The notes below the pieces were generated by a model. The model was not told the origin of the DNA, made no database searches, and worked only from the letters and a program-made list of their open reading frames with translations. This document shows, piece after piece, positions 9,627-61,650 of a stretch of 64,000 nucleotides of DNA. Both the position numbers and the translations under genes were made by a program. Where the stretch lies: contig JBFYSV010000202.1 in assembly GCA_041301185.1 (NCBI GenBank), positions 8,620 to 72,619 of the forward strand, in the 5' to 3' direction. Source of the DNA: Anaerolineae bacterium (lineage in GTDB: Bacteria > Chloroflexota > Anaerolineae > Anaerolineales > UBA4823). Position 1 is the stretch's first letter; each line of letters begins with the position of its first letter.

Positions 9627-10607
9627 CTACCCACCGATTTCACTCATCGTCCGGTTGAGTGGGATCAGGCCTTCAGCCAAACCATTCCCCCACGGCTTGT
9701 TCCAAATCGCTTCCAGGATCAGCTGTCTTAGCTCAGCGAATGATGCCCCGCTTCGCAGAGGCGTCAGCACATCAACTTCTCGTTCGTGCAGCAAGCATAA
9801 CCTTAACCGCCCATCGGCGGTTAATCTTGCTCGGGTACAGGATGAGCAAAAAGGCTGGCTCACTGTAGAGATAAACCCTACCGTACCGATCGCCCCTGGG
9901 ATACGGTACATCCTCGACTCACCGTCCAGTTGCCCGCCGTTCATACATTCCAGTGGCCCAAATACTGCTTCGATGCGCTCTTGAACCTCGGACGAGGTAA
10001 CGACATTGGCTCGCTGGAATTCGGTCGCGCCACCAAAAGGCATCATCTCAATGTAACGAACTTGCCAGGCTTTTTGGAGGGTGAGCCGTGCCAAATCCAC
10101 CACATCTTTTTCGCTATAATCGCGCACCACAACCGCGTTAATTTTGATCGGCGTCAGCCCGGCTTCTTCGGCAGCTGCGATCCCATCCCATACATCTAGT
10201 AATGAACCCCAACGGGTCAGGCGGTGGAATTTTTCGTTATCCAGGGTATCCAGGCTGAAATTAACCCTGCGTAAGCCAGCCTCTGCCAGCGGTTTTGCTA
10301 ACCGGGAAAACAACACACCGTTGGAGGTCATCGTTAATGACCGGACACCAGGTATTTCTTTTATCCGGCGAACTAATTCGACAATCCCTGCCCGCACGGT
10401 AGGCTCGCCACCTGTCAGGCGGTACTTATCGAATCCCAGGCTGGCAAAAATCTTTATCAGGCTCAAGACCTCATCGTCTTGCATCAGCTCTGCATTCGGT
10501 CGGAAGGTCATCCCCTCTGGCATGCAATAGATGCAGCGCAAGTTACAATGATCGGTAAGACTGATGCGCAAATAATGGATTTGCCGACCAAAACGATCAA
10601 TCGCCAT
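9627..10607 (-). CDS. moaA: GTP 3',8-cyclase MoaA (radical SAM)
   Basis: 326-aa ORF with 'CNLRCIYC' radical-SAM cluster motif, a C-terminal second cluster 'CSSCTRARLTADGRLRLCL' and a terminal GG. Confidence 0.9.
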   Translation of the reverse strand: MAIDRFGRQIHYLRISLTDHCNLRCIYCMPEGMTFRPNAELMQDDEVLSLIKIFASLGFDKYRLTGGEPTVRAGIVELVRRIKEIPGVRSLTMTSNGVLFSRLAKPLAEAGLRRVNFSLDTLDNEKFHRLTRWGSLLDVWDGIAAAEEAGLTPIKINAVVVRDYSEKDVVDLARLTLQKAWQVRYIEMMPFGGATEFQRANVVTSSEVQERIEAVFGPLECMNGGQLDGESRMYRIPGAIGTVGFISTVSQPFCSSCTRARLTADGRLRLCLLHEREVDVLTPLRSGASFAELRQLILEAIWNKPWGNGLAEGLIPLNRTMSEIGG

Positions 10608-10850: not shown

Positions 10851-11729
10851 ATGGAAGACAACCTCCAACTTACAGATTTGTCTCCAGATCCCGTGGAAGA
10901 ATGGCAGCGAATGCTGAAATTCTGCAATTTAGCCGCGGCTGAGCAACAGGCAATGGCACGCTCGGTGGAACCATTGATGAAGCGCAGCACAGAATTGGTG
11001 GTGAATACCTATGATTATCTGCGTGCAGTTCCAGAAACAGCCGCAATCCTGGGCTGGGAAGACACGGTTGATGAAGACCATCTAGAAGAACGGCGGCGTT
11101 TTTTCACCATTTGGCTGGCGCGCACGCTAGGATTGGATACATCAGATGAGTTTGCATTTTATCTGTTCCGTGCCGGTCAATACCACGCTGGGCAAGGTCC
11201 CCGAACGATACACACCCCGCCGGCGTATGTAACCATATCGATTGGTATGGTCCTGGCAAGTTTTGCCAATTACATGATAGATGCACAACTGCCTGCTGAG
11301 GTGATAGCCCTTGCCATGGCTGGTTGGAGCAAATATCTAAGCGTACAATTAAATCAGATGTCGATGGGCTACTCTATCGCCCGGGATTTTTCAAACGGTG
11401 ATTTCGCTACTCGGGTGACGTTGTTTGGGCGAATGCGACCGCTGATAGGGAAAACGGAGCTGCCTGTCCCCCTCCTTAGCGGTGCAAAAATCCATGATCT
11501 ATTGAAGAAATTCTTCGATTACTATCCTCAGTCACGGGCGGTCGTACTGGACCGCGTTTGGCAATCACACGACAAGGCTGATTCGTTATGGATTGAAGTC
11601 ATGCCGGTCTATGTCCCTCGGAAAGGCTGGCGAATTTTACACAACGGTCGCGCTCTCGGCTTTGAGAAGGGTTTCAACGAATTAGTTCGGGAGAATGATG
11701 AAGTCGCAATTTTCCCACCGGGTCGTTGA
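10851..11729 (+). CDS. Fusion protein: protoglobin-like domain plus MoaD/ThiS-like beta-grasp domain (C-terminus ...FPPGR)
   Basis: 292-aa ORF. By eye, aa ~15-175 align to the protoglobin/globin-sensor fold ('VVNTYDYLRAVPE', 'RRRFFTIWLARTL', 'AGQYHAG' with a candidate proximal His112). Residues ~186-292 resemble MoaD ('RVTLFGRMRPLIG...LVRENDEVAIFPPGR'). A candidate promoter TTGCCT-17-TACTAT lies at 10764-10792. Confidence 0.55.
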   Translation: MEDNLQLTDLSPDPVEEWQRMLKFCNLAAAEQQAMARSVEPLMKRSTELVVNTYDYLRAVPETAAILGWEDTVDEDHLEERRRFFTIWLARTLGLDTSDEFAFYLFRAGQYHAGQGPRTIHTPPAYVTISIGMVLASFANYMIDAQLPAEVIALAMAGWSKYLSVQLNQMSMGYSIARDFSNGDFATRVTLFGRMRPLIGKTELPVPLLSGAKIHDLLKKFFDYYPQSRAVVLDRVWQSHDKADSLWIEVMPVYVPRKGWRILHNGRALGFEKGFNELVRENDEVAIFPPGR

Positions 11730-11829: not shown

Positions 11830-13656
11830 ATGACGCTCGGAGGTTATGCAGATCGAATAGCTCATGTAGACCTTACCGCAGGCAAGGTCGAATATAAGGC
11901 AGCACCAGAGGATTGGAAGCTCAAGTATATTGGTGCTCGGGGTTTGGGCGTGCGTTACGTACTGGAAAATGGCCCCCAGGTAGATCCCCTATCCCCGGAT
12001 AATATCCTATGCTTCATGAATGGCCCCCTGACCGGCACTGAAGCTAATATGAGCGGCCGGATGGCCATTGTCACCAAATCCCCCCTCACCGGAACTGTGA
12101 CCGATAGCCACCACGGCGGCTGGTCGGCTGCCCGCTTGCGTTGGGCTGGCTTTGATGGCTTGATCTTCAAAGGCAAAGCTGCAAAACCGGTTTACGCCTA
12201 TATCGAAGAGAACACTCTTGAATTACGAGATGCTTCAGATGTATGGGGCAAGGGCGTTCACGATACCATCAAACACTTCAAAGAGCTCTACGGAGAGAAA
12301 GACCTGACCGTGATTTCCATCGGTCCAGCAGGCGAGAAGCTCTCCCGCTTTGCTTGTTGGGTGAACGAGCACGATCGGGCAAGCGGACGAGGCGGAACGG
12401 GCTGTGTTGGCGGCAGCAAGAACCTTAAGGCGATCGTGATCAAAGCCAAGAAGAATATGCCCAAAGCAAAGGATCGTGAAGCCTGGAAGCCTGCTCATGC
12501 CCGGGCCCTTTCCGTGATCATGGATGAAGCTAATATCACCAGCCCCCGCAAAGGCGCTCTTTCGGTCTACGGCACGAATGTGTTGATGAATATCACCAGC
12601 AATATGGGAGCATTACCGGCCAATAACAGCCAGTTTGCCTCATTTGGCGATAAAGCTGAGGCCATCAGCGGCGAGCATGTAAAGGAAACTATCCTGGTCA
12701 ACGACCCCACTTGCCACGCTTGCCCGGTTGCCTGCAAGAAAGAGGTCAGAGTTACTGAAGGGCCCTTTGCAGGTTTGCAGATGGAGAGCGTTGAGTACGA
12801 ACCCGCCTGGTCGGTCGGCGCCAACTGTGGTAACGATAATATCGCCAGTGTGGCTAAGATTATTGACCTGTGCAACGATTATGGGCTGGACGCCATCGAA
12901 ATCGGTAACGTCCTCTCGGTCTATATGGAAGCCACCCAAAGAGGTTACACCAACGGTGCAGGAGGGCTCCAGTGGGGTGACTACATGAACATGGTCGAAA
13001 CTACCCACAAGATTGGCAAGCGGGAAGGGATTGGTGATGCCCTCGCAGAAGGAGCCGCCCGGGCAGCTCAACATTTCGGACATCCCGAGATCTCGATGAC
13101 TGTAAAGGGCCAGTCCATACCCGCTTACGATCCGCGCGGTTTGAAAGGCATGGGTATTGCCTATGCCACCAGTAACCGCGGTGCCTGCCACTTGCGCGCC
13201 TATACCCCGGCAGCCGAGTTGAACCTGATGCCCTTTAAATCCCTTCGGGTAGATCCCCTCGAGTGGAAAGGCAAGGGTGAGCTGGTGATGATCTTTCAGG
13301 ATATCCACGCTTTTTCAGACAGCCTGGATCTGTGCAAGTTCAGCGCATTTGCTGAGGGTACGGATGAATACGCTCAGCAATACTCTGCTGTGGTCGGTAT
13401 TCCGTTCACATCCGATGACGTGCTGAAGACCGGGCAGCGGATATATAACCTGGAACGCTACTATAATAACCTGGCGGGTCTCAGGGAGGGAAGCGATTAC
13501 CTGCCTGAGCGCTTCTTGAAAGAACCATCCACAATGCCTGGCTCTGAAGGGCATGTTTGCGAGCTGGACTTGATGCTAGAGGAATACTACAAAGCTCGCG
13601 GCTGGGTGAACGGGGTTGTTCCGGAGTCTAAGCTCAAAGAGTTAGAGATTATCTAA
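11830..13656 (+). CDS. aor: Aldehyde:ferredoxin oxidoreductase (tungsten-pterin AOR family)
   Basis: 608-aa ORF with AOR N-domain ('KYIGARGLG', 'NGPLTGT', 'KSPLTG') and a 4Fe-4S ligand region ('DPTCHACPVACKK'). C-terminal AOR domains are present, and an AGGAGG RBS sits upstream. Confidence 0.9.
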   Translation: MTLGGYADRIAHVDLTAGKVEYKAAPEDWKLKYIGARGLGVRYVLENGPQVDPLSPDNILCFMNGPLTGTEANMSGRMAIVTKSPLTGTVTDSHHGGWSAARLRWAGFDGLIFKGKAAKPVYAYIEENTLELRDASDVWGKGVHDTIKHFKELYGEKDLTVISIGPAGEKLSRFACWVNEHDRASGRGGTGCVGGSKNLKAIVIKAKKNMPKAKDREAWKPAHARALSVIMDEANITSPRKGALSVYGTNVLMNITSNMGALPANNSQFASFGDKAEAISGEHVKETILVNDPTCHACPVACKKEVRVTEGPFAGLQMESVEYEPAWSVGANCGNDNIASVAKIIDLCNDYGLDAIEIGNVLSVYMEATQRGYTNGAGGLQWGDYMNMVETTHKIGKREGIGDALAEGAARAAQHFGHPEISMTVKGQSIPAYDPRGLKGMGIAYATSNRGACHLRAYTPAAELNLMPFKSLRVDPLEWKGKGELVMIFQDIHAFSDSLDLCKFSAFAEGTDEYAQQYSAVVGIPFTSDDVLKTGQRIYNLERYYNNLAGLREGSDYLPERFLKEPSTMPGSEGHVCELDLMLEEYYKARGWVNGVVPESKLKELEII

Positions 13657-14313: not shown

Positions 14314-15753
14314 CTACTTCGCCCCATCTGTTCGCAGCAACCGCAGGAAGGCAACACGCCGGGTGGTTGAGCTCAGGCGAGCGGTCTCCCCTATCCGAAA
14401 CCCTGCTACCCAAATAATGTCTTCACCGGATACGAGGATAGGCCAGCCATCTCTTGCTTTGGATGGAATTTTAAGATTGGTCATAAAATCAGACAATTTG
14501 ATTGAGTGCCCATCCAATCCAAATGGCTTCAAACGGTCACCGGCTTGCCTGCTGCGCACGAGTACCGGGAAAATAATCTTATCTGCGTCCAGCCAGGCTC
14601 GGGTTGGATCGGTATTCATCTCAACTTGAGCGATTAGTTCAGCGCTTGCCAATAATTGCTCTGCCCTAATCATCCAGCCGCCACCCAATTCACATACTCC
14701 CGGAAGATCAAGATAATAAGTTTTGCCGCTGATTACCTGCGGCCAATCTCCGATCGGTAAGACTGCATCCCGGGCAGCCAACCAAAACAGGCCAGACTCA
14801 ACAAAGACGTATAATCCGGCTATCAGCTCAGTTTTCCCATGAGCGGGTTGTTTTATTTGTTCGACCCCTCTTTCGATAACCTTGAATTCAATGTCCCTAA
14901 GCTCCGGAACCAGCGTTGTCATACCCTTCCTCAATAACTGGCGTTGCATTCCCACTGGCAGGCGTGACACTCCATCAACAGCTAATCCAACATATCCTGT
15001 GCCCTGCTCGACACAGCACTCGGCCCAAACCTGATCCACGTTTTTCTGCATGATGGCATGATCCCCTCGCAAAACCTCTGCCATGTTAAATAACCTATTT
15101 TTGATCTGGGGATTATATTGTTCCAATTCTGGAATCAGATCGTGGCGTAATCGATTGCGGAAATACCGCCGATCCCGGTTCGATTCATCGATTTCAGGCT
15201 GGATACCCCGCTCTAGCAAATACTGCGTGATATCATCCCGCCAGCTCCCGAGCAACGGCCGCACGAGAGGAATCTCATTATCCCAACTGTTCGGTAAAGA
15301 AAAATATCCCATACCACTCAAACCAGCCAGCCCAGAGCCGCGCAGAAAATGCATCAATACTGTTTCTACCTGATCATCTGCTGTATGACCGACGGCAACC
15401 GCTTGAGCACGATTTTCTCTTGCCTGATCAAACAAAAATCGATATCGAACCACACGCGCTGCTTCTTCGACGGATAGGTGATTTTCCCGGGCGTAGCTGT
15501 AAATATCCACTTTCTTTTGAACAAAAGGTAATTTCCTGGATGAGGCTTGTTGGTGAACTTGATGGGCTTCATCATCAGCTCTTGATCGTAATCCATGATT
15601 CAGGTGAGCCACAATTATCTGGTAACCCAGGCGCCATAGAATGTCTAACAAGCACAGGCTGTCCGGACCGCCTGAGACACCTGTCACAACAGCTTTGTTA
15701 ATTCCAATCCGGCAGTTGTGTTGTAAAATATACTGAAGATCGTTCACATTCAC
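14314..15753 (-). CDS. tilS: tRNA(Ile)-lysidine synthase
   Basis: 479-aa ORF with PP-loop 'GVSGGPDSLCL', 'AHLNHGLR' and 'GHTADDQVETVLM' motifs, plus a TilS C-terminal domain. Confidence 0.85.
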   Translation of the reverse strand: MNVNDLQYILQHNCRIGINKAVVTGVSGGPDSLCLLDILWRLGYQIIVAHLNHGLRSRADDEAHQVHQQASSRKLPFVQKKVDIYSYARENHLSVEEAARVVRYRFLFDQARENRAQAVAVGHTADDQVETVLMHFLRGSGLAGLSGMGYFSLPNSWDNEIPLVRPLLGSWRDDITQYLLERGIQPEIDESNRDRRYFRNRLRHDLIPELEQYNPQIKNRLFNMAEVLRGDHAIMQKNVDQVWAECCVEQGTGYVGLAVDGVSRLPVGMQRQLLRKGMTTLVPELRDIEFKVIERGVEQIKQPAHGKTELIAGLYVFVESGLFWLAARDAVLPIGDWPQVISGKTYYLDLPGVCELGGGWMIRAEQLLASAELIAQVEMNTDPTRAWLDADKIIFPVLVRSRQAGDRLKPFGLDGHSIKLSDFMTNLKIPSKARDGWPILVSGEDIIWVAGFRIGETARLSSTTRRVAFLRLLRTDGAK

Positions 15754-15888
15754 AAAATTATTATAGCGTAAAAGAAGCGCATTATTTTAGCCCTTGATCG
15801 TTTATGATCACTGGCACCATCACCGAAATGCACTACTGGGGTCATTTATTTTAGATGACTAATCCAAAGCTGATCATGGGGAGTTGCC

Positions 15889-17049
15889 ATGCCCGAGAAA
15901 ATATTAATTGTCGATGATGACATTGATACATTGAAGCTGGTAGGCTTGATCTTACAACGACAAGGCTATGATGTTCGGGTGGCGAGCAGTGGTTTACAGG
16001 CTTTGTCGATGATTCAAATTGATCTCCCCGATTTGCTGCTGTTGGATATCATGATGCCCGAGGTGGATGGGTACGAGGTTGCCCGCCAACTGCGAGCCGA
16101 CCCACAAACAGCCGAGATTCCCATCATCATGTTCACCGCCAAAACGCAACTGGATGATAAAGTTGCCGGATTTGAAGCTGGCGCAGACGATTACCTGACC
16201 AAACCCACCCAGCCACGCGAGTTGCTTGCGCATATCAAAGCGGTCATGGCTAGAACCAGTAAAAGCCGCCAACCGGCAACCGTAGCTCAACCCCCTTCCG
16301 CTGAGCGAGGCTATATGGCGGGGGTGATCGCGACCAAAGGCGGTTTGGGGGTATCTATAATATCCTTAAATCTCGGGGTTGCTATCCGGGAAGAATACAA
16401 GAAGGATGTCATTGTAGCCGATTTCCGCCCTGGTCAAGGAAGCATCGGTCTAGAGCTAGGCTATCAAAAAGCAGAAGGCTTAAATCACCTCTTAGAGCGA
16501 AAACCCAACGATATCACCCTGAAGGACATCGAATCTCAACTCGTATTGCACTCATCAGGTATCCGGCTATTGTTGTCCTCTCACCGTCCAAGTGACTCGA
16601 AGTATAACGGGGCGATTGCCCATTTTGAAGTGATCTCCCGTAATTTACCCTTCCTTGCAAAGCATGTGATCCTTGATTTGGGGCCGACCTTCTCTCCGCT
16701 GGTAGAAAAAGTTGTTCCTCATTGCAATGAGATCATTGTCCTTGTTGAGCCGGTGCCCTATTCTGTCCACCAGACGCGCCTTCTGATCGATGAGCTAACC
16801 ACCAATGGAGTCGGTGAGGGTAAAATCACAGCAGTGTTGGTGAACCGCTTCCGTTCAGGTGTACAATTAGCCTGGAGCCAGGTACAGGAACAACTCAAGC
16901 ATAATATCTCCGTCATATTCACCCCCGCACCCGAGTTGACCTACCAGGCATCTGTCAATGGAGTCCCGGTATTTTTACAACAGCCGGAAAGTCTTACGGC
17001 CCAGCAATTTCAGAAACTGGCTGAGAAGGTCATCCAGCGAAGCACATAA
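15889..17049 (+). CDS. Response-regulator receiver fused to a CpaE/TadZ-type ParA/MinD-like domain (atypical Walker A)
   Basis: 386-aa ORF. REC domain has 'ILIVDDD', acceptor Asp in 'LLLLDIMMP' and 'KP'. A ParA-like domain follows with 'ATKGGLGVSIISLNLG' (KGGxGxS, no GK[ST]) and 'VILDLGP'. Confidence 0.8.
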   Translation: MPEKILIVDDDIDTLKLVGLILQRQGYDVRVASSGLQALSMIQIDLPDLLLLDIMMPEVDGYEVARQLRADPQTAEIPIIMFTAKTQLDDKVAGFEAGADDYLTKPTQPRELLAHIKAVMARTSKSRQPATVAQPPSAERGYMAGVIATKGGLGVSIISLNLGVAIREEYKKDVIVADFRPGQGSIGLELGYQKAEGLNHLLERKPNDITLKDIESQLVLHSSGIRLLLSSHRPSDSKYNGAIAHFEVISRNLPFLAKHVILDLGPTFSPLVEKVVPHCNEIIVLVEPVPYSVHQTRLLIDELTTNGVGEGKITAVLVNRFRSGVQLAWSQVQEQLKHNISVIFTPAPELTYQASVNGVPVFLQQPESLTAQQFQKLAEKVIQRST

Positions 17050-17828
17050 TGTCCGTCCCAGAACAATTCAAGCGCGGAATACAGTGTGCTGCCGATATTA
17101 TTCGCGGCAGCCGAAATACGGTTGCGCTGACCGGCGCTGGAATCTCCACACCTTCGGGCATTCCTGATTTCAGAACCCCGACCAGCGGTCTTTGGGAAAA
17201 ATATGATGCCTTTGAAGTGGCGTCTTTGAACGCTTTCAGGTATAACCCGGAAAATTTTTTCAACTGGATGCGTCCATTAGCCCGGGATATTCATACCGCC
17301 TCCCCCAACCCAGCGCACCGCGGTTTGGCTCAGTTAGAAGAAGCAGGCTACCTCCAAACAATTATCACCCAAAACATTGATGGTCTTCACCAACAGGCCG
17401 GATCCAGGATGGTTCTGGAAGTGCACGGTAGCCTGCAATCCCTAACTTGTGTGCGTTGCTATCAGCAGCACAATGCATCTAATTTTATCGACGCGTATGT
17501 TGAGCAAGGAGTTATTCCTCGATGCTCTAAATGTAGTAACTACCTGAAACCGGATGTGGTTCTGTATGGAGAACAGCTTCCAGCTCGTACCTGGCTAAAA
17601 GCCCAGGAAAGCTGCAAGCGTTGTGACTTAATGATTGTTGCAGGCTCTTCTCTCGAGGTACTTCCGGTCGCCGGGCTTCCCATGCGGGCAATCGACCGCG
17701 GTGCTCACCTGATCATTATCAATCAATCCCATACCTATATTGATGTCCGAGCCGATCTTGTTCTGAATGCTGATGTAGCGCTGGCTATCCCGTGGATTGT
17801 TCAGGAGGTGCTGAGTGGCCGACCTTAA
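17049..17828 (+). CDS. cobB: NAD-dependent protein deacylase, Sir2/CobB family
   Basis: 259-aa ORF with 'GAGISTPSGIPDFR', 'TQNIDGLH', 'EVHGS' and Zn ribbon CxxC...CxxC ('CVRC','CSKC'). Its start overlaps the upstream stop (TAATG). Confidence 0.85.
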   Translation: MSVPEQFKRGIQCAADIIRGSRNTVALTGAGISTPSGIPDFRTPTSGLWEKYDAFEVASLNAFRYNPENFFNWMRPLARDIHTASPNPAHRGLAQLEEAGYLQTIITQNIDGLHQQAGSRMVLEVHGSLQSLTCVRCYQQHNASNFIDAYVEQGVIPRCSKCSNYLKPDVVLYGEQLPARTWLKAQESCKRCDLMIVAGSSLEVLPVAGLPMRAIDRGAHLIIINQSHTYIDVRADLVLNADVALAIPWIVQEVLSGRP

Positions 17829-19005
17829 ACCCTCAACCCTACCCGAGAGATACCAGCGCCTTCTTGAGCTGTCGCATGATCTGGCGTCCACCCTCGATTT
17901 GGACAGCCTGCTCAGCAGGATTGTCAAGGCGGCCGCCGAACTTTGCCACGCCGAAGCCGCCTCGATCTTGCTGTATGACCAGCTCAAAGAGCAGCTTTAC
18001 TTCAGGGCAGCTTCCAATATGGATACCCCGCTGATGAGCGAGCTGATCGTCCCGGTAACTGGCAGTATTGCCGGTTGGATTATTACCAACCGCCAGCCAG
18101 TCATCTTAAATGACGCCCAGAAAGATCCGCGCCATTTTAGCAATGTGGGCAGGATCACACAGGTCTCAACAAAGAGCTTGCTTGGCGTTCCTCTCCTGCG
18201 GAAGGAGAAGGTGATCGGGGTGCTGGAAGCGATCAACAAGCAGCGGGGAAAATTCGATGATGAAGACCAAGACTTATTGCTGGCGCTTGGGGCTCAGGCT
18301 GCCATTGCAATCGAGAATGCCCGCCTGTTCCAACAATCTGACCTGATTTCGGAATTTGTCCACGAGATCCGAACCCCGCTTGCATCCCTTACTGCGGCCG
18401 CGTATATTCTGATGCGCCCAGAGATTCCCGAAGAACGGCGTGCGAATATTATCCAAACAATGCAGCAGGAGGTAACCAGGCTATCTGATATGGCCTCAGC
18501 TTTTCTGGATCTCGCCCGGTTGGAATCTGGACGTGTACGCTTTCAATTCACATCCGTCGATTTGGGCGACTTAATGGAAGAATGCTCAATTGTCATCCGG
18601 AGCAAGATAGAGGAAAAAGGGCAGGACCTACAATTACAGCCTTCACCCGATCCAATTCAAATCAGCGCGGATCGAGATAAACTAAAACAGGTAATCCTGA
18701 ATCTGCTCAGCAATGCTCATAAGTACACGCCCGGCGGCGGCAAAATTGTGCTTTCTTTTTACGCTACCTCCGATGAGATCATCATTCAGGTCAGTGACAG
18801 TGGGTACGGTATTCCTGCTGAATACATGCCCCACATGTTTGAAAAATTTTATCGCGTCCCCACAACTGAATATGTTGAACAGGGCTCAGGATTGGGCTTA
18901 TTTATCTGTAAGCATATTATCGATGCACATGGCGGTAGGATCTCGATTGATAGCAAAGCTGGTAAAGGAACCACCGTCAGTGTGCGTCTGCCATTTATCG
19001 CGTAG
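17815..19005 (+). CDS. GAF-domain sensor histidine kinase
   Basis: 396-aa ORF with no TM segment. It has a GAF domain, an H-box 'FVHEIRTPL', and N/G boxes ('LLSNAHKYTP','DSGYGIP','GSGLGL'). The GTG start has an AGGAGG 6 nt upstream and overlaps the sirtuin gene by 14 nt. Confidence 0.85.
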   Translation: MADLKPSTLPERYQRLLELSHDLASTLDLDSLLSRIVKAAAELCHAEAASILLYDQLKEQLYFRAASNMDTPLMSELIVPVTGSIAGWIITNRQPVILNDAQKDPRHFSNVGRITQVSTKSLLGVPLLRKEKVIGVLEAINKQRGKFDDEDQDLLLALGAQAAIAIENARLFQQSDLISEFVHEIRTPLASLTAAAYILMRPEIPEERRANIIQTMQQEVTRLSDMASAFLDLARLESGRVRFQFTSVDLGDLMEECSIVIRSKIEEKGQDLQLQPSPDPIQISADRDKLKQVILNLLSNAHKYTPGGGKIVLSFYATSDEIIIQVSDSGYGIPAEYMPHMFEKFYRVPTTEYVEQGSGLGLFICKHIIDAHGGRISIDSKAGKGTTVSVRLPFIA

Positions 19006-19013
19006 CCCCCGAA

Positions 19014-20783
19014 TTATCGAGCCCCACGGCGTCCAAACTGTCGTTCCAGGAGGTCCACCGAGAGATGGATCATTGTAGGACGCCCATGCGGGCAGGTGCG
19101 GGGTGACTTACAATTTTCCAGATCGGCAAGCAGGGCGCGCTGTTCCTGGGGAGAAAGGGTTTGACCGGCTTTGACTGCTGCCCGTTTACAGATCCGGGCA
19201 ACCAGCATTGCTTCGATCTCTTTCTGCAACGGCGTCTCGTCCTCCTCAAAGTCTTCAACCAGGCTATGTAAAGCAGAAGCTGGATCGATACCGGCTAATA
19301 AAAGCGGTATCGCCCGCACTATAAAGGTATTCCTACCAAATTCTTCCACTCGAAAACCAATCTTCGCCAGGTGGTTAAGCTGTTCGGAAAGTAGGCTAGC
19401 CTGGGCTGACGTCAAATTCACCGTTTGGGGTTCTAATAAGGTCTGGGCAGTAACCCCTTCATAACCCGTATCTGGTTGCCCTACTGCCAGCATCATCTTC
19501 TCGAACAACACTCGTTCGTGAGCTGCATGTTGGTCAATCAGATACAGACCATCAGGTCCTTCTGCAACCAGGAAAGCAGACGCCACCTGACCGACCAGGC
19601 GCAGAAGCGGGATTCGGTTTTGGGTGGGCGGCAACTCGCTTTGTGATCCTTGGCGGTTTCCGATCCATGTGGGTGCTTGCTCTGGAGTCGTTGGTGTGGT
19701 CTCCCCGGGTCCAACCCAGAGTTCGTTCTCAAATTTGGGTTGGCTTTGCCAGTCACCTGTTTTCCAGTAGGGTGACGTGCCAAGCGCTGGGACCGGTGTG
19801 TGGGCAAGTAATGCCCGTCGAACAGCACTCTGGACAACCCGAAACACGACATTCGGTTCGCGAAACTTTACCTCGGCTTTCGTTGGATGTACATTCACAT
19901 CCATCTCTTCAGCAGGCATCTCCAGGAATAATACAGCCAATGGATACCTGCCAACCATTAACAGGGTATGGTATGCCTGCAATAATGCCGTTGACAAGGA
20001 AACGTCTTGCACAGGTCGCCGATTGACAAAAAACGTCAATTCGCGCCGGTTTGACCTTGTAATCGAAGTGGGGCTGATAAAACCCGAAATTTGGATAGCC
20101 CCATCGACTGCCAGGACTTCGAGCATCTGTTTGGCAATCTCGATCCCATAGAATGACGCCAGCACTTCCCGGCGGTTGCCATTCCCGCTGGTCATCAAGG
20201 ATGGGCGATAATCTTGGTGCATCTGGAAGCGTACCTGCGGGTAGGCTAATGCATAGCGCGTGACCAGATTATCTATGTATCGCTTTTCAGTAGCTTCGCT
20301 TTTTAAGAACTTCAAACGAGCGGGGACGTTATAGAATAGGTTTTCAACCCGGACGATGGTTCCAACCGGTGACCCGACTGTCTCGAGAGTGCCCGCATGG
20401 CCTCCCTCAATATATAATCGTGCTCCTTCATCATCCTCCCGAAAACGAGAGATAATGGTCATTCGGGACACCGATCCAACCGCAGCCAGCGCTTCTCCTC
20501 GGAATCCGAGCGTGCTGATATGGAACAAGTCATCCGCCTGGGATAATTTGCTCGTGGCATGCCGCAGAACTGCCAATGGTAACTCACTCGCTGGAATACC
20601 AAAGCCGTTATCAGACACTTCGATTAGTTTTCTCCCCGCCAATTCAATCGCAAGGTTAACCTTGGTCGCCTGCGCATCCAGCGCGTTCTCAACCAACTCC
20701 TTGACCACAGAAGCCGGCCGTTCTACGACCTCACCCGCTGCGATCTGCGAAGCTACCTCATCATCAAGCAAATGGATTGGCAT
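19014..20783 (-). CDS. mutL: DNA mismatch repair protein MutL
   Basis: The ORF runs to 20834, but the conserved N-terminus 'MPIHLLDDEVASQIAAGEVVERP' starts at 20783. A GHKL ATPase and a C-terminal dimerisation domain ('HGRPT') are present. Confidence 0.9.
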   Translation of the reverse strand: MPIHLLDDEVASQIAAGEVVERPASVVKELVENALDAQATKVNLAIELAGRKLIEVSDNGFGIPASELPLAVLRHATSKLSQADDLFHISTLGFRGEALAAVGSVSRMTIISRFREDDEGARLYIEGGHAGTLETVGSPVGTIVRVENLFYNVPARLKFLKSEATEKRYIDNLVTRYALAYPQVRFQMHQDYRPSLMTSGNGNRREVLASFYGIEIAKQMLEVLAVDGAIQISGFISPTSITRSNRRELTFFVNRRPVQDVSLSTALLQAYHTLLMVGRYPLAVLFLEMPAEEMDVNVHPTKAEVKFREPNVVFRVVQSAVRRALLAHTPVPALGTSPYWKTGDWQSQPKFENELWVGPGETTPTTPEQAPTWIGNRQGSQSELPPTQNRIPLLRLVGQVASAFLVAEGPDGLYLIDQHAAHERVLFEKMMLAVGQPDTGYEGVTAQTLLEPQTVNLTSAQASLLSEQLNHLAKIGFRVEEFGRNTFIVRAIPLLLAGIDPASALHSLVEDFEEDETPLQKEIEAMLVARICKRAAVKAGQTLSPQEQRALLADLENCKSPRTCPHGRPTMIHLSVDLLERQFGRRGAR

Positions 20784-29313: not shown

Positions 29314-30096
29314 ATGTGGGATTTACTGATTATCAATCCAATGGTTAATACCCTGTTGGGGATCTACGCGGTCCTTAGCCGGGTGTTTGGACCAGAGAAT
29401 ATGTTCGGTCTGGCTATCATTTTCTTTACAATCCTCATCCGCCTGATCACTTATCCGCTTACCATACAGCAGATGAAGGGCGCTCAGGGTATGCAGGAGA
29501 TGCAAAAATCAAAGAAATGGCAGGAAATCCAGAAGAAGTACAAGGACAATCGGGAAAAGCTGGCTCAAGAGCAGATGGCGCTTTACAAAGAAATGGGGAT
29601 TAGCCCATTTAGCTCCTGCCTACCAACCTTAATCCAATTCCCGATTATCATCGGACTTTACCAGGCTATCATCCGATGTCTAGCAGTAACACCTGTCCAG
29701 CTGCTCGATCTATCCAAGCATATCTATCCGTTCATCGATGGCGCTGCTCTGATCCCCTTGAACAATCAATTCCTGTGGATGAATCTAAGCCAACCTGAGC
29801 GCTTGTACATATTCGGCATCGGCATTCCAGTGCTGGCAATCATCGTGGTGATTACCACCTACATGCAATCCAAGCTGATGACCCCGCCTGCTCAACCCGG
29901 CGAACAGGGAGCCCAGATTTCTCAGGCGATGAACCTGTATATGCCTTTCTTAATGGGCTGGCTGGCATATTCATTCTCTTCTGGTCTCTCCCTATATTTT
30001 GTGACCAGCAACGTCGTAGGCATCTTACAATACGCCGCCATGGGAAAAGTAAATTGGCGCAACCTGATCCCTTCGCTGCCGAAAAGAACTCGCTAA
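29314..30096 (+). CDS. yidC: Membrane protein insertase YidC (short, monoderm type)
   Basis: 260-aa ORF with 'GLAIIFFTILIRLITYPLT..Q', 'MQEMQ', 'LYKE.GISP..SCLPTLIQFPI' and 'MPFLMGW' motifs. It lacks a large periplasmic P1 domain. Confidence 0.85.
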   Translation: MWDLLIINPMVNTLLGIYAVLSRVFGPENMFGLAIIFFTILIRLITYPLTIQQMKGAQGMQEMQKSKKWQEIQKKYKDNREKLAQEQMALYKEMGISPFSSCLPTLIQFPIIIGLYQAIIRCLAVTPVQLLDLSKHIYPFIDGAALIPLNNQFLWMNLSQPERLYIFGIGIPVLAIIVVITTYMQSKLMTPPAQPGEQGAQISQAMNLYMPFLMGWLAYSFSSGLSLYFVTSNVVGILQYAAMGKVNWRNLIPSLPKRTR

Positions 30097-30131: not shown

Positions 30132-30920
30132 ATGGAAAATCGAGCTACATTAGAGGTAATTGCTCCTACAATTGAAGAAGCTATCGCGAAAGGCATCGAT
30201 GAGCTAGGTGTACCGGAGGAAGCAGTTGATATCGAAATTCTTGACCCGGGTAGCAAGGGTTTATTCGGGATCGGCTCCCGTCAAGCCAGGGTACGGCTGG
30301 TCGTAAAATCCGATTCTCAACCCGGAGGGGTGACTGATAAGGCACCTGTAACTTGGATAAGCCAACAACCAAGCGTCTCTGCAGAAGCAATGCCTGCAAC
30401 CTTAGAGGAGAGTGCTACCAGCGACTATTCCGGGCAGACAGCAGACAAAGAAGATATCACCCTGTACGTTGCCAGAGAAACCGTGGTCGAGCTTCTGGAG
30501 AAAATGAAAGTCCGGGCAACAGTAAAAGCATACTATGGTGAACCAGACGAAGCCCAGAGCCGCGCCCCGGTATGTGTTGATATCAATGGCAAGGATCTCA
30601 GTATCCTGATCGGCAGACAATCCGAGACGCTTAATGCCCTGCAATATATATCCAGCCTGATTGCAAGTAAAGAACTTGGTCACTCAATACCCCTGGTAGT
30701 TGACGTCGAAGGGTATCGCAAAAGACGACAGCAGCAAATCCGCTATCTGGCTCGGCGAATGGCAGAGCAAGCCGTGAAGACCGGTCGGCGGCAGATTTTA
30801 GAACCTATGCCCGCAAACGAGCGGCGGATCGTGCATATTGAGCTGCGTGATAATCAGTCTGTAACCACCGAAAGTGTTGGTGAAGAGCCTCGGCGTAAAG
30901 TGACCGTAATACCAAAATAA
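30132..30920 (+). CDS. jag: Jag/KhpB RNA-binding protein (Jag_N + KH + R3H)
   Basis: 262-aa ORF in the conserved position after yidC. It has an N-terminal 'TIEEAIAKGIDELGV' and the C-terminal R3H motif 'LEPMPANERRIVHIEL'. Confidence 0.85.
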   Translation: MENRATLEVIAPTIEEAIAKGIDELGVPEEAVDIEILDPGSKGLFGIGSRQARVRLVVKSDSQPGGVTDKAPVTWISQQPSVSAEAMPATLEESATSDYSGQTADKEDITLYVARETVVELLEKMKVRATVKAYYGEPDEAQSRAPVCVDINGKDLSILIGRQSETLNALQYISSLIASKELGHSIPLVVDVEGYRKRRQQQIRYLARRMAEQAVKTGRRQILEPMPANERRIVHIELRDNQSVTTESVGEEPRRKVTVIPK

Positions 30921-31884: not shown

Positions 31885-32676
31885 ATGGGGTATGTCTATA
31901 CGCTAGTCAACCAAAAAGGCGGGGTGGGGAAGACCACCACCGCCATCAACCTGGGTGCGTACCTGGCGTATTATGGACAGCGGGTTCTGATCGTTGACCT
32001 CGATCCTCAGGCAAACGCCACCTCCAGCTTGAAAATCGACAAAAATACGGTTCGTGGCGGCACATACGAGGCGCTCATTCGATCCTCTACTCTCAGCCAT
32101 CATATTCTGCATAACCCGCGCTTGAAGCTATCCCTGCTCCCCTCCTCCCCTGCCCTGGCAGGTGCTGAAGTTGAATTGGTGAATGAACTTGCCAGGGAGA
32201 CCCGCTTGAAGAAAGCTCTCGATCCAATCCTGGATCGCTATGATTATATTCTTATCGATTGCCCGCCATCACTTGGCTTATTGACTCTGAATGGGATTGT
32301 TGCTGCCCTGGATGGCGTCATTATCCCGGTTCAGTGTGAATACCTGGCGCTCGAGGGATTGAGCCAGCTCACCCAAACCTTAAATCGCGTCCGGTCTGCA
32401 ATCTTTCCAGCTCTGAAGGTCTTTGGGGTGGTTTTAACCATGTATGACGGGAGGACAAATTTGGCGAATGATGTGGTTAGCGAGGTCCGGCGCTATTTCT
32501 CCGACCGGGTATTCCAAAGTCTGATTCCCCGCAGTGTTCGCCTGGCTGAAGCACCCTCCTATGGACAACCGATCACTGTATACGCGCCACAATCGAGCGG
32601 TGCAGAAGCCTATGCTGCCCTTGCCAGGGAAGTTCTGGAATTAAACGGTGTCCGTATCCCCACACTACAGGCTTAA
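31885..32676 (+). CDS. parA: Chromosome partitioning ATPase ParA/Soj
   Basis: 263-aa ORF with deviant Walker A 'NQKGGVGKTTT', 'DLDPQANAT' and 'ILIDCPPSLG'. Confidence 0.9.
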   Translation: MGYVYTLVNQKGGVGKTTTAINLGAYLAYYGQRVLIVDLDPQANATSSLKIDKNTVRGGTYEALIRSSTLSHHILHNPRLKLSLLPSSPALAGAEVELVNELARETRLKKALDPILDRYDYILIDCPPSLGLLTLNGIVAALDGVIIPVQCEYLALEGLSQLTQTLNRVRSAIFPALKVFGVVLTMYDGRTNLANDVVSEVRRYFSDRVFQSLIPRSVRLAEAPSYGQPITVYAPQSSGAEAYAALAREVLELNGVRIPTLQA

Positions 32677-32682
32677 CTTACT

Positions 32683-33540
32683 ATGACCCGAAAAACTGGA
32701 CTTGGGCGAGGCTTAGATGCTCTGATCCCCGGGGGCGAACCACCCTCCACGGGTGTTATTGAAATACCAGTAAATCTGATCACTCCAAACCCGAGACAGC
32801 CACGCAGTCGCTTCGACGCCGAGGAATTATCTGAGCTGGCTGACTCCATAAAAGAGCACGGTGTCCTTCAACCGATCATCGTATCTTTTGATGAACATGA
32901 CTCCCAATATGTGCTGATTGCCGGTGAAAGGCGCTGGATGGCAGCTCGACAAGCCGGTCTGGAATCGATTCCATCCATAGTGCGCGAAGTCAACGATCAG
33001 CAGCGCGTCGAGCTGGCTTTGATCGAGAACGTCCAACGTTCCGATCTCAGCCCCCTGGAAGCGGCCGAAGCATATCACCAGTTAAGTGAAGAGTTTGCAC
33101 TGTCTCATGATCAAATTTCTACAAGAGTAGGGAAAAGCCGCACCACGATTACCAACACTCTCCGGCTCTTAAAACTCCCAATAGATGTAAAAACCGCCCT
33201 GGCCGAAGACCGGATTAGCGAAGGGCATGCCAGGGCGTTGCTGTCCTTGAACAATCCACAGGCCCAGACCGCAGCCTTGCAGACCATCCTGGCAAAAGAC
33301 CTGACAGTGCGCCAGACGGAACAACTGGTACGAAAGCTGAGTGGAGAGAAGCCGGCACCGGTTCCCAAACCGACGGCTGCGCCAGAAATTTTATCCCTGG
33401 AAGAACAATTGCGCTCGCGGTTGGGTACAAAAGTGAAAGTCAACCCCCGCAAAAAGGGCGGCTCAATTGTTATTCATTATTTTTCAACCGAAGAGCTCAA
33501 TTCATTGCTGGACCTCCTCCTCGGAAATTCACAAGACTGA
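32683..33540 (+). CDS. parB: Chromosome partitioning protein ParB/Spo0J
   Basis: 285-aa ORF with 'GLGRGLDALI', 'NPRQPR', 'GVLQPIIV', 'LIAGERRWMAA' and HTH 'SHDQISTRVGKSRTTITNTLRLLKLP'. Confidence 0.9.
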   Translation: MTRKTGLGRGLDALIPGGEPPSTGVIEIPVNLITPNPRQPRSRFDAEELSELADSIKEHGVLQPIIVSFDEHDSQYVLIAGERRWMAARQAGLESIPSIVREVNDQQRVELALIENVQRSDLSPLEAAEAYHQLSEEFALSHDQISTRVGKSRTTITNTLRLLKLPIDVKTALAEDRISEGHARALLSLNNPQAQTAALQTILAKDLTVRQTEQLVRKLSGEKPAPVPKPTAAPEILSLEEQLRSRLGTKVKVNPRKKGGSIVIHYFSTEELNSLLDLLLGNSQD

Positions 33541-36089: not shown

Positions 36090-39044
36090 CTAATTCCCCC
36101 TGGTTTGCTGCTGGACCAGTTTTACGCCAACCAGATCGGCTTTTACAATCAAACGCTTTGTATAGAAACCGGTGTACATATCCCATTCCGAGCAAGTGAT
36201 CAAAGTGAGCTGCGGTTCCGAACTGGCGCCAATTACCGCCAGGTCGGTTGCCTCAACATCTACTTGCTCGCTTATCATATACTCATAGATATTTTTCTCG
36301 GTATAGATGAATACTGCATCTCCATATCTTAAATCAGCCAGGTAACGGAAAGGTCCATTGCTTCCATCGCGCAAAGTAACATGACCAGCCAATGCAGTAT
36401 TCCCACCCAGACCAGGCCAGGAGGTATCACCCATCCAGGCAATCTCCTGGTTCAGGCCGGCAATCAACCAGGTCAAACCATCGTAAGGAACATATTTCAC
36501 AACCGTGTCGAGGGCAAGAGCGGGGATGATAATCCGGTTCACCGGGCTAAGATCTGCCCCGGCTTCCTCAGTTGGGGCAAGCATGGTAGGTGTTGGAATC
36601 GGGAAATCCGGTAGTTTATTCAACTCAGAACCGGGTATCTGAGGAGTCATCCCAGGCCAGATTATTGTTTCAGGCTCGCTTTGAGACAGAAAACGCACTT
36701 TTTCTAACGGTGCCCTGACAGAGGACTTTTGAGCGAGGGGGTTGGTATCTTTAACAGTATATCTGTTCAAGATCCAACCAGAAGTACCAAATAGTACCGC
36801 AGCCACAGTCAATAAGCCGCCCATCTTAACCGCCCAACTCGTCCATTCGGATTGCTGGCCACGTAGTTGGTACGCATAGGCGAAAGCCACAATCGCCAGG
36901 ATCAGCAGCAGGCCAGCACTGACGAAGGCGACCAGGGATGGTTTAATTTGCGGCTTTGCCGCACCAATTTCGACCCCGCCGGTACCCGGCAGGGTTGATA
37001 CTGCCAGGATTTGGAAACTAACGGTATTTGAATTTCGCGTAAAAGTACTTCCACCAAATTTATATGTCAGCTTGGCTGTATTGGTTACTGTTGAATTTAC
37101 CGTTGCGCTGGTATTCACCCTGCCTACCACGGTAATCGTTACTTCTTCGTTACGGTTAAGAACGCCAAAGGTAACCGTCACCTTTCGAGTGGAGTTATTG
37201 ACCGTAGCTGTTCCCTTGGAGGTTTTCGCGCTGGATATATCCAGGAAAGTCGAGAAGGTATCTTCTACGATAATATCTGTCATGGGTGCCGTACCCGTGT
37301 TCGTTAACTTAATTGTGTACGTGGCGTTCTGATTGGTTCGCACCTGGTTAGGCGAGACAGATAACGTGATCCCAGGGGTAGGTGAGCCGGTGGAAGTTGT
37401 CGTATCGCTGGCGATATTATTACTGGTGTTTGCCTCTGGGGCGGTTGTGGTAACCCTGGCCTGATTGGTCAGGGCAGTCGCAGGACTTGGCAATGCATCC
37501 GCCACCCGCACTCGCAACTTAAATCGCAATGCTGCGTTCGGAGCGATACTGGATTCCAGTTTCCATACATAAGTCAGAGCAGCAGGGGTAGTAGGGGATA
37601 CATCTAATGTATGGGTGATAAAACTCAAAAAAGTGGGGAGCACATCGGTGATGACAACCCCGGTTGCCGGGATGGTACCGAAATTGCTGATCGTCATTGT
37701 ATATGTGATGGTCTGCCCCGGAGTAACGGTTGTCAGCCCATCAGTCTTTGTAAAGCGCAAATCGACCGTATCCAGCTCAAAATCCTGCCGGGTGGTCTGA
37801 CCCGGAATAAGGAACGGTGTCGCGGTTTTGGACGAATACCCGCTTCGGGATACACTGATCGACGCTGCTCCAGCAGAGATCGGATTGGTAATCGTACCCG
37901 TAAAGGTGTACCAGCCACTGGCTACTGTATTCATTACATAGGTGCGGTTGGCGCTATCGCGTAGCTCAACCCTTGCCCCGGAAAGAACATTATCTGTTAT
38001 CGCATCCGTCACCCTGCCGGTCACCTGTGTGCTTTGAACCGTAAAACTCACACTGGCAATATTATTTGTCGGATCATAATCCGGTATGGCAGACACCAGG
38101 CCTTCTGTGGTATTAACAATCGTCGTCCCCAGCGAGCCAGAGTTTACCCTCGCGACCAGGAGTAACGTTGCGTTTGCTCCATTAGCAAGATTACCTAATG
38201 TCCATCTTCCATCGGTATTCGTGTATGATCCCAGGCTCGCTTGCGCTTCCGTAAAGGTTAACTGAGTTGGCAGCACATCGGTCAGAATTACGCCTGTTGC
38301 GTCGCTGGGTCCTCGATTGACCACGGTTAATGTGTAAGTGACCACGCCTCCCTCGGATGGAGAGGCGGGAGCGACGGCTTTTGTAACCTGGAGATCGGCG
38401 CCAACCAGCGTTGTAGGGCTGTCAGACGAGTTATTACCTGGATCGCCATCGTTAACATTAGCTACAACGGCTGTATTGAAAATTTGCGTCGTAGTCGTTG
38501 GAGTAGGTACAACGCTTAAGCTAATCTCCGGCAGCATAGCACCCGGAGCTACACCTGCCGTGTTCGAGTACACACAGGTAAGGGTCTGAGCGAGCGTACA
38601 ATCCCAACCAGTTGTATCAACACTCAGGGGCGAGAGCACATCCGTCAGGATATCTGTTACCGTAATACTACCAGACACAACCCCAGTGCCAATATTCTTG
38701 ACATTGATGAAGTACTCGCCTGGCTCCAGAATAACGAAGTCAGCCGAATGTGTTTTGGTAATGATTAAGTCTGCAACAGCCTGAAGCGTTTCACCAGGCT
38801 GGCTAAGCATGTTTTGGGCGTTGCTTTTCTTCACCGAGGGAGCAAGGAGAGGTGTATCCAGGCGTGTCTCATCGGGGTTGGATGATGCCCAGCTCGTGGT
38901 GAGCGGTATAAATAACCCTCCAGCGATCACCGCAACCAGAATAAATACCAGGACGATCCAAGCTGACCGGGCATTTGAATTCTCTTCTTGGTTGTCGGCG
39001 GCAATCAAATCGCGATCCATACTTTCTCCGGAGGTGAGTATCAC
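36090..39044 (-). CDS. Fusion: signal-anchor + DUF11-repeat/CarboxypepD_reg surface region + LPGTG sorting signal + 2 TM helices + sortase catalytic domain
   Basis: Uninterrupted 984-codon ORF. The ATG at 39020 has a GGAG RBS and may be the true start. DUF11-type repeats begin at aa 91, 216, 427 and 559. LPGTG occupies aa 685-689 (nt 36978-36992), with hydrophobic helices at aa 703-725 and 737-759. The sortase motifs are 'LAGH' (His888), 'TLITC' (Cys951) and 'KRLIV' (Arg964). Confidence 0.8.
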   Translation of the reverse strand: MILTSGESMDRDLIAADNQEENSNARSAWIVLVFILVAVIAGGLFIPLTTSWASSNPDETRLDTPLLAPSVKKSNAQNMLSQPGETLQAVADLIITKTHSADFVILEPGEYFINVKNIGTGVVSGSITVTDILTDVLSPLSVDTTGWDCTLAQTLTCVYSNTAGVAPGAMLPEISLSVVPTPTTTTQIFNTAVVANVNDGDPGNNSSDSPTTLVGADLQVTKAVAPASPSEGGVVTYTLTVVNRGPSDATGVILTDVLPTQLTFTEAQASLGSYTNTDGRWTLGNLANGANATLLLVARVNSGSLGTTIVNTTEGLVSAIPDYDPTNNIASVSFTVQSTQVTGRVTDAITDNVLSGARVELRDSANRTYVMNTVASGWYTFTGTITNPISAGAASISVSRSGYSSKTATPFLIPGQTTRQDFELDTVDLRFTKTDGLTTVTPGQTITYTMTISNFGTIPATGVVITDVLPTFLSFITHTLDVSPTTPAALTYVWKLESSIAPNAALRFKLRVRVADALPSPATALTNQARVTTTAPEANTSNNIASDTTTSTGSPTPGITLSVSPNQVRTNQNATYTIKLTNTGTAPMTDIIVEDTFSTFLDISSAKTSKGTATVNNSTRKVTVTFGVLNRNEEVTITVVGRVNTSATVNSTVTNTAKLTYKFGGSTFTRNSNTVSFQILAVSTLPGTGGVEIGAAKPQIKPSLVAFVSAGLLLILAIVAFAYAYQLRGQQSEWTSWAVKMGGLLTVAAVLFGTSGWILNRYTVKDTNPLAQKSSVRAPLEKVRFLSQSEPETIIWPGMTPQIPGSELNKLPDFPIPTPTMLAPTEEAGADLSPVNRIIIPALALDTVVKYVPYDGLTWLIAGLNQEIAWMGDTSWPGLGGNTALAGHVTLRDGSNGPFRYLADLRYGDAVFIYTEKNIYEYMISEQVDVEATDLAVIGASSEPQLTLITCSEWDMYTGFYTKRLIVKADLVGVKLVQQQTRGN

Positions 39045-41007: not shown

Positions 41008-41066
41008 CCAATTCCTCCACAAAAGCTACCTATACTATGCTTATGTTGTTGAGGGTACTCCACATC

Positions 41067-61638: not shown

Positions 61639-61650
61639 AGAGTTGTTGTC

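Follow-up and report, generated by a model that had tools for sequence, protein, structure and literature searches.

Three overlapping genes on the forward strand of a 64-kb stretch of Anaerolineae DNA (assembly GCA_041301185.1, contig JBFYSV010000202.1; the whole stretch is called the window below) encode a response regulator, here named protein 1, a Sir2-family sirtuin and a soluble histidine kinase. The reading favoured here, which we regard as reasonably probable, is that they specify a non-transcriptional two-component pathway acting on a switchable, non-hydrolysing scaffold or positioning protein, with the sirtuin as a co-expressed and separable companion. Judged by its residues, the output domain of protein 1 is a distinct, catalytically crippled branch of the ParA/MinD family that carries a TadZ-type P-loop and is joined to a live receiver. 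The operon is ancient within Anaerolineales, and its arrangement occurs far beyond chance. The features of the locus are listed below.

15889-17049, plus strand: protein 1, 386 aa, response regulator joining a canonical receiver to a ParA/MinD domain of TadZ type that has no P-loop lysine
15901-16239, plus strand: receiver (REC) domain of protein 1, aa 5-117 (Pfam PF00072 Response_reg, 107.5 bits, E 5e-31)
16045-16047, plus strand: codon of the predicted phospho-acceptor Asp53, within REC
16312-17046, plus strand: predicted ParA/MinD-fold output domain of protein 1, aa 142-386 (AlphaFold2 (AF2) domain model, Foldseek, PDB profile)
16336-16356, plus strand: variant Walker A motif K150-GGLGV-S156, without the GK[ST] lysine (sequence reading)
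17047-17051, plus strand: TAATG, in which the protein 1 stop codon overlaps the sirtuin ATG start
17049-17828, plus strand: sirtuin, 259 aa, Sir2-family NAD+-dependent protein deacylase, with GAGIS at aa 29-33, GIPDFR at aa 37-42 and a Zn ribbon formed by Cys134, Cys137, Cys159 and Cys162 (sequence reading)
17424-17426, plus strand: codon of the catalytic His126 of the sirtuin
17803-17808 and 17815-17828, plus strand: AGGAGG and the kinase/sirtuin overlap (sequence reading)
17815-19005, plus strand: histidine kinase, 396 aa, GTG start, soluble, GAF-HisKA-HATPase_c
17893-18315, plus strand: GAF domain of the kinase, aa 27-167 (Pfam)
18334-18531, plus strand: HisKA domain, aa 174-239 (Pfam)
18361-18363, plus strand: codon of the predicted phospho-accepting His183 in the kinase H-box
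18670-18996, plus strand: HATPase_c domain, aa 286-394 (Pfam)
15754-15888: intergenic region of 135 nt between protein 1 and the divergent tilS gene (14314-15753, minus strand)

The regulator and its kinase

The initial annotation had described the receiver of protein 1 as complete, and the Pfam match bears this out. About 45-50% identical to OmpR/PhoB-type receivers, the domain is fully canonical, with an intact phospho-acceptor pocket, D9, D10, D53, T83, Y102 and K105 being invariant in all 77 family members compared. The rest of the protein is predicted to adopt the ParA/MinD fold. Pfam gave a weak AAA_31/CbiA match below cutoff (aa 146-337, E 9e-5), and the AF2 model of the domain (mean predicted local distance difference test score, pLDDT, 91.7) had its best structural match by Foldseek in 3EA0, with a template modelling (TM) score of 0.84-0.87, the archaeal MinD structures 1HYQ, 1G3Q and 1ION scoring 0.76-0.86. 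Profile matches in the PDB were to 1HYQ (E 4e-13), 3EA0 (E 3e-11) and 3FKQ (E 0.21). Against the NCBIfam models for BcsQ, MinD, ParA and Ssd the domain reached 25-43 bits, the cutoffs being at least 154, and no family membership was therefore assigned.

The residues of the output domain indicate how far it departs from an ATP-cycling enzyme. The P-loop had been read as KGGLGVS (aa 150-156) lacking the GK[ST] lysine; this holds for protein 1, and the lysine is missing in 77 of 77 sequences. The family pattern is [K/R/H]GGxGx[S/T]: in a tally of residues over these sequences, K never occurs at position 155, which is taken by V, T, A, S or G; position 150 holds K in 56 sequences, R in 17 and H in 3, so that Arg or His replaces the lysine in 20 of the 77. 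Walker B Asp263 is invariant, and an NRxR motif at 319-322 is conserved. Arg180, an arginine in 62 of the 77, aligns with the second Asp of the 'DAD' switch-I motif of MinD, a position that we take to be that of the catalytic Asp40 in E. coli MinD. The deviant Walker A motif of ParA/MinD proteins is KGGxxK[S/T], with both lysines (PMC11407121), and protein 1 falls outside this definition, the second lysine being the one absent throughout the family.

For the kinase, Pfam and hydropathy confirmed the GAF, HisKA and HATPase domains and the lack of a transmembrane segment that had been noted at the outset. In Kyte-Doolittle plots with 19-residue windows the mean never exceeded 1.61 in any of the three proteins, indicating no membrane segment, and the hydropathy peaks coincide with predicted core strands. 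Across 64 kinase orthologues, the H, N, G1, F and G2 boxes vary little or not at all, and the enzyme looks active and under purifying selection.

Relatives of protein 1 provide two further observations on its supply of phosphoryl groups. The clade L057-L071 has no sirtuin; there, a membrane kinase of about 1100 aa with dCache, HAMP and PAS domains is encoded divergently upstream of protein 1. This dCache-HAMP-(GAF)-PAS-HisKA-HATPase kinase replaces tilS as the divergent neighbour, for instance in L060 (3197-6463, minus strand) and L052 (2988-6446, minus strand), and is also found at L057, L058, L063, L064, L066, L068, L069 and L071; nine of the ten genomes that carry it have no sirtuin, while L052 retains the full trio. 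The dimerisation and histidine phosphotransfer (DHp) region of the dCache kinase differs from that of the GAF kinase. A second, membrane-bound kinase beside protein 1 fits a genuine phosphoacceptor fed by more than one sensor. The other observation concerns helix alpha-1 of the receiver, a region that usually determines kinase specificity. In the clade that has lost the adjacent kinase this helix reads LVGTTLEKQG in place of LVGLMLQRQGY; being a single evolutionary event, the change lends weak support to cognate pairing.

Conservation of the operon and the place of the sirtuin

The closest homologues of protein 1 are proteins of about 380 aa from Anaerolineales (Chloroflexota), the best being 97% identical; all relatives considered here are metagenome-assembled genomes (MAGs) or metagenome contigs. 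Searching 1.84 billion representatives with a profile of the C-terminal domain gave about 209 clusters, defined at 50% identity, with E<1e-30. Of these 209, the best 150 are either about 380 aa long, with the domain at roughly 135-385, or shorter fragments; the family is compact, and its full-length members among those listed are all two-domain proteins. A genome scan with an alignment of the C-terminal domain yielded 79 species-level genomes, all Anaerolineae or Chloroflexota, whose gene order was typed by tblastn with the window proteins:

regulator-sirtuin-kinase: 53 of 79 genomes
regulator-kinase, sirtuin missing: 13 of 79
regulator-sirtuin, kinase missing: 4 of 79
regulator followed by convergent mutL, sirtuin and kinase both missing: 8 of 79
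truncated contig: 1 of 79

The GAF kinase thus lies downstream of the regulator in 66 of the 79 genomes, and the trio was also found in independent gene calls on metagenome contigs. In many genomes a wider block is syntenic, consisting of tilS, the trio and the genes for MutL, a HAD protein, a CoA transferase and an S41 protease. The trio is nevertheless intact between unrelated genes on both flanks in L023, L043, L044, L047, L052, L055, L059 and L075, which argues for selection on the cluster itself. In a neighbour-joining tree of protein 1 the trio occurs on both sides of the deepest split, pointing to an ancestral trio from which the sirtuin was lost at least four times and the kinase at least three times. 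The three-gene order described in the initial annotation is accordingly conserved well beyond its original flanks.

The junctions are tight in the window and in relatives. The list of open reading frames (ORFs) and the sequence itself confirmed the three ORFs, TAATG at 17047-17051, the 14-nt overlap that begins with the kinase GTG, and AGGAGG, all as previously read. The 3' end of the sirtuin gene is overlapped by the kinase start over 17815-17828, with AGGAGG standing 6 nt ahead of the GTG at 17815, and a Shine-Dalgarno-like motif, GGGGAG, precedes protein 1 at 15879-15884. Among related loci the sirtuin and kinase genes overlap by 1-20 nt in 47 of 52, and the regulator/sirtuin boundary is an overlap or a gap of at most 20 nt in 51 of 56, which bears out the tight packing first noticed; an independent gene caller gave 8-nt sirtuin/kinase overlaps on metagenome contigs. 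A Shine-Dalgarno-like motif is missing before the sirtuin in 50 of 57 loci. This was considered as a sign of translational coupling and set aside as not diagnostic, because stand-alone sirtuin genes also lack the motif.

The promoter of the operon would sit in the 15754-15888 region. Scans over 15500-19400 for consensus promoters and for terminators gave counts at or below the shuffled expectation and were uninformative. At the other end of the operon, the kinase (ending at 19005) and mutL (stop at 19014-19016, minus strand) have convergent stop codons 8 nt apart, leaving no room for an intergenic terminator, and the scan of this junction (19003-19016) detected no terminator-like site.

The sirtuin itself was described from the outset as canonical, with GAGIS, GIPDFR, a catalytic His and a Zn ribbon, and the family data agree. 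It matches Pfam SIR2 (PF02146, aa 29-206) with 180.4 bits against a cutoff of 24 (E 4e-53) and the NCBIfam deacylase subfamily NF001753 with 270.9 bits against 243, its 276 bits to the equivalog NF040867 lying under that model's cutoff of 320. All 58 orthologues compared retain, without change, GAGxS, the D-F-R core of GIPDFR, His126 and the four Cys. By its sequence, the protein is a canonical, active-looking NAD+-dependent lysine deacylase under purifying selection. The region NPENFFNWMRPL, inspected by eye, appears to lack the Tyr-x-x-Arg acyl-specificity motif (FYxxRR type) of class III enzymes (SIRT5/CobB) and may resemble the Thermotoga Sir2 type (class U).

Whether this enzyme is a dedicated partner of the other two was approached from the sirtuin side. 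The genomic setting could be read for seven orthologues (64-72% identical) located on long contigs: three belong to a full trio, one accompanies the regulator only, and three lie by themselves between tilS and mutL, the regulator and the kinase both being absent. The lone orthologues, 64-66% identical to the sirtuin of the window, are the following.

L081, 4001-4777: lone sirtuin
L084, 4001-4792: lone sirtuin
L089, 2601-3377: lone sirtuin

Their position indicates that the sirtuin keeps its place, and presumably a function, without the two-component genes. The lone sirtuin P0314 was found in 121 blocks of the assembly collection.

A metagenome scan returned mostly distant sirtuins, one of its patterns (QNIDGLHQ) being generic, and it serves here as an outgroup control rather than as a survey of orthologues. 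Of its 80 loci, the six at 49% identity or more adjoin protein 1 and/or the GAF kinase; around the other 74 sirtuins (38-50% identity, from diverse organisms) there was no receiver or kinase match within 3.5 kb. The linkage is therefore specific to this clade and not general to sirtuins, and it is not obligatory.

Lysines of protein 1 were compared between loci with and without the sirtuin. Lys150, the signature residue and the one distinctive lysine of the ParA-like domain, was rejected as a sirtuin target, as it does not follow the presence of the sirtuin: loci with sirtuin and kinase have K at this position in 34 cases, R in 14 and H in 2, and sirtuin-less loci mostly have K. Lys125 is conserved in 79% of the loci with the sirtuin and in 19% of those without, Lys117 in 84% and 57%, and Lys376 in 84% and 52%, respectively; these enrichments are treated as a lead only, because the sirtuin-less sequences form few clades and phylogeny confounds the comparison.

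The response regulators CheY, RcsB and PhoP are established substrates of CobB (PMC8603916), in agreement with the precedent that the initial annotation had invoked. Its further suggestion, that deacylation converges on protein 1, found no support: the genes are lost independently, the sirtuin stands alone in three of seven cases, and K150 is replaceable in 20 of 77 family members. Such convergence is possible but unsupported, and the sirtuin is probably a co-expressed general deacylase rather than a dedicated partner, one that may count the regulator and the kinase among its non-exclusive clients.

Proposed pathway and competing explanations

In the pathway proposed here, a cytoplasmic ligand would be sensed by the GAF domain of the kinase and lead to autophosphorylation on His183, after which the phosphoryl group would pass to Asp53 of protein 1, a transfer suggested by the adjacency of the genes and the intact catalytic residues. 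Phosphorylation of the receiver would alter the self-association or the partner binding of the ParA/MinD-fold domain. Because the P-loop lysine is absent and an Arg replaces the catalytic Asp, this domain would be expected to bind partners, and perhaps nucleotide, without ATP cycling. Protein 1 would in this way be a switchable scaffold or positioning hub for some cargo, neither a motor nor the TadZ of a tad locus. The sirtuin would be co-transcribed, and perhaps translationally coupled, with the pair, most likely as the general deacylase of the lineage.

Four other explanations have to be weighed against this pathway. The sirtuin could deacylate protein 1 or the kinase in a dedicated module, so that phosphorylation and acylation jointly gate the scaffold. 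The wedging of its gene between regulator and kinase, with overlapping junctions in most loci, argues for such a module, as do the movement of the trio as a unit into unrelated contexts, the lack of a two-component gene beside any of the 74 outgroup sirtuins, the CobB precedent with CheY, RcsB and PhoP, and the better conservation of Lys125, Lys117 and Lys376 where the sirtuin is present. We nonetheless consider it unlikely: some orthologues of the sirtuin occupy the tilS-mutL site by themselves, 13 genomes keep protein 1 and the kinase but no sirtuin, as a result of at least four losses, Lys150 gives way to Arg or His irrespective of the sirtuin, and the differences in the lysine columns rest on few clades. 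At the opposite extreme, the genes might have no functional link and be neighbours through inherited synteny from tilS to mutL, as the wide tilS/trio/mutL-HAD-CoA transferase-S41 block found in many genomes would allow. This is the least credible of the explanations, being hardly compatible with a trio kept where both flanks differ, with conserved coding overlaps, or with the pairing of regulator and kinase in L057-L071, whose flanks are entirely different.

The two remaining explanations concern the identity of protein 1. It might be the TadZ/CpaE of a Tad pilus encoded elsewhere, whose assembly or placement would be phospho-regulated. KGGLGVS fits the TadZ Walker A consensus K/RGGXGXS/T (bioRxiv 10.64898/2026.07.08.737194, a 2026 preprint), so that this part of the initial label 'CpaE/TadZ-like' stands, as does the remark that KGGxGx[S/T] is typical of such proteins. 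Moreover, 3FKQ, the TadZ of Eubacterium rectale (ErTadZ), is the only solved structure with the two-domain layout of protein 1 and ranks second in the full-length Foldseek search, and the annotation of the Joint Genome Institute (JGI) calls many homologues 'pilus assembly protein CpaE'. The remainder of the label calls for qualification: the receiver is canonical and not atypical as in TadZ, 3FKQ is matched by profile at E 0.21 only and falls outside the top 50 in the domain-only fold search, and the tad clusters of Anaerolineales already have a CpaE of their own (PMC4877987). The absence of tad genes nearby, remarked on at the outset, was confirmed both in the 64-kb window, where no ORF of at least 150 aa contains tad/cpa domains (cpaF/tadA, tadB/C), and among the ten recurrent neighbour families scanned within 7 kb in the 79 genomes, smaller clusters and singletons being left out of that scan. 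These recurrent neighbours are ADH, LytR-CpsA-Psr, radical SAM, Mur ligase, amylase and similar proteins. A role in a distant Tad pilus is consequently very doubtful, and protein 1 is not the TadZ/CpaE of a tad locus, which corrects the automated annotation.

Protein 1 could alternatively be a MinD- or Ssd-like regulator that is switched by the kinase and places the division site or septum in these filamentous bacteria. Its best profile matches are to archaeal MinD (E 4e-13), it has weak similarity to Ssd (TIGR03815) and BcsQ, and its gene is single, highly conserved and origin-proximal, with yidC, jag, parA and parB 12-17 kb away. No minC or minE neighbours are present, however, no amphipathic membrane-targeting helix follows the last helix of the fold at the C-terminus, the curated family scores are far under their cutoffs, and the gene is lost together with the kinase where the sirtuin alone stays at the site, although a copy elsewhere is possible. 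We regard this role as improbable, if less so than one in a Tad pilus.

The preferred pathway, with its separable sirtuin, has several points against it. The tightness of packing, the age of the operon and the retention of the trio after relocation argue for something beyond passive co-expression. The sirtuin-anchored sample comprises seven proteins only, the survey anchored on protein 1 is blind to sirtuin-kinase pairs without it, and a heuristic was used to set the start codons of the 79 related loci. No conserved neighbour points to a cargo, the recurrent neighbours being housekeeping or metabolic genes. Finally, the glycine-rich loop is further degraded in some members, to HGGMGGTT, HSGMGGTT, KPGMGVSS or RSGWGVST. 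Degraded loops occur among L053, L055, L056 (an Anaerolinea thermophila MAG), L020, L048 and L052, and no such motif at all was detected in protein 1 of L052; the erosion suggests that the constraint on nucleotide binding has been relaxed in some lineages.

ParA/MinD-type positioning proteins are normally governed by their own ATP cycle and their partners, and the TadZ-type members carry, to our knowledge, only a dead receiver. The protein 1 family appears to unite a live, kinase-served receiver with a lysine-less ParA/MinD domain across the abundant and poorly cultured Anaerolineales, and, if the proposed pathway is correct, it would let a cytoplasmic signal act directly on spatial organisation, bypassing transcription. 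With its embedded sirtuin, the operon also lends itself naturally to the question of a link between lysine deacylation and two-component phosphorylation. A still stronger proposal makes the sirtuin integral to the circuit, stripping acyl groups derived from acetyl-phosphate or acyl-CoA from the regulator or the kinase so that phosphotransfer depends on NAD+ and acyl status, or has the GAF domain sense a metabolite linked to the sirtuin, such as NAD+, nicotinamide or O-acetyl-ADP-ribose. We give it little credence; were it true, the state of protein acylation would determine how far a TadZ-like positioning protein is phosphorylated. We know of no description in bacteria of such a circuit, in which phosphorylation, deacylation and spatial organisation would be joined.

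Neighbouring genes and comparison with known systems

The window contains yidC (29314-30096) and jag/KhpB (30132-30920), followed by a gene for a pfkB-family kinase, and then a canonical parA/soj (31885-32676, AAA_31 E 1e-58) and parB (32683-33540). The presence of yidC, jag, parA and parB suggests that the window lies close to the replication origin, and the genome has an ordinary ParA besides protein 1. On the tilS side, an aldehyde:ferredoxin oxidoreductase gene (11830-13656) is followed on the opposite strand by genes for a DUF1952/MoaD_arch protein (85 aa) and a ThiS/MoaD-like protein (92 aa), the block extending to 14277, and is preceded by moaA (9627-10607) and a gene for a protoglobin-domain protein (10851-11729); the MoaA/oxidoreductase block recurs in the relatives L003, L013, L015 and L027.

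Further away, the minus strand encodes at 36090-39044 a protein of 984 aa in which DUF11 repeats (216 bits) and other repeats are combined with a sortase domain at the C-terminus (aa 840-972); it is unusual for a sortase to be joined in this way to an apparent surface-repeat protein. The adjoining 39106-41022 (minus strand) encodes SelB, the selenocysteine-specific elongation factor, from which it follows that the organism uses selenoproteins. An 828-aa fusion of a BPD_transp_1 permease with a PQQ-like beta-propeller is encoded at 47641-50127 (minus strand), next to a second permease gene (50127-51050). A Bmp/PnrA-like binding protein (57263-59461, minus strand) is, at 732 aa, about twice the usual length, with a single Bmp match at aa 61-349, and its gene adjoins those for an ABC ATPase and four BPD_transp_2 permeases (59576-63661).

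Among known systems, the TadZ/CpaE proteins, represented by ErTadZ (3FKQ), share with protein 1 the union of a receiver fold with a ParA/MinD fold, the K/RGGxGxS/T Walker A motif and a presumed role as a hub for localisation or recruitment, not as an ATP-cycling enzyme; according to work attributed to Xu et al. in 2012, ErTadZ reportedly binds ATP and has low ATPase activity. The receiver of TadZ, in contrast, is degenerate and atypical, whereas that of protein 1 is canonical and has its putative cognate kinase encoded next to it, and TadZ sits in a tad locus, unlike the gene for protein 1. The uncharacterised ParA-family ATPase of Chlorobium tepidum (3EA0) resembles the output domain in its fold and in its lysine-less KGGDGGS motif, but it is a single domain of 245 aa without a receiver, and the identity is about 17%. 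MinD (1HYQ, 1G3Q, 1ION and its bacterial counterparts) and the wider ParA/MinD family have in common with the output domain the fold, the Walker B Asp, the NR motif and the C-terminal helix; protein 1 differs from them in lacking the P-loop lysine, the catalytic Asp (Arg180 standing in its place) and the invariant signature lysine, and from MinD also in the absence of MinC and MinE partners and of a membrane-targeting sequence.

On the regulatory side, CobB with CheY, RcsB and PhoP in enterobacteria (PMC8603916) is like the trio in bringing an NAD+-dependent sirtuin and a phosphorylatable regulator into one regulatory setting. The enterobacterial cobB gene is, however, unlinked to two-component genes and acts globally, whereas here the sirtuin gene lies inside the operon of the regulator and the kinase. 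Regulators of the PleD, CheB and FrzS types likewise have a receiver that governs a non-transcriptional output, the output of protein 1 being instead a degenerate ParA/MinD domain. Within the limited coverage of the literature searches made, neither a characterised fusion of a canonical receiver to a ParA/MinD domain nor any published case of a two-component operon enclosing a sirtuin gene was found. In summary, the operon is TadZ-like in motif and layout, MinD-like in fold, and set apart by its canonical receiver and embedded sirtuin.

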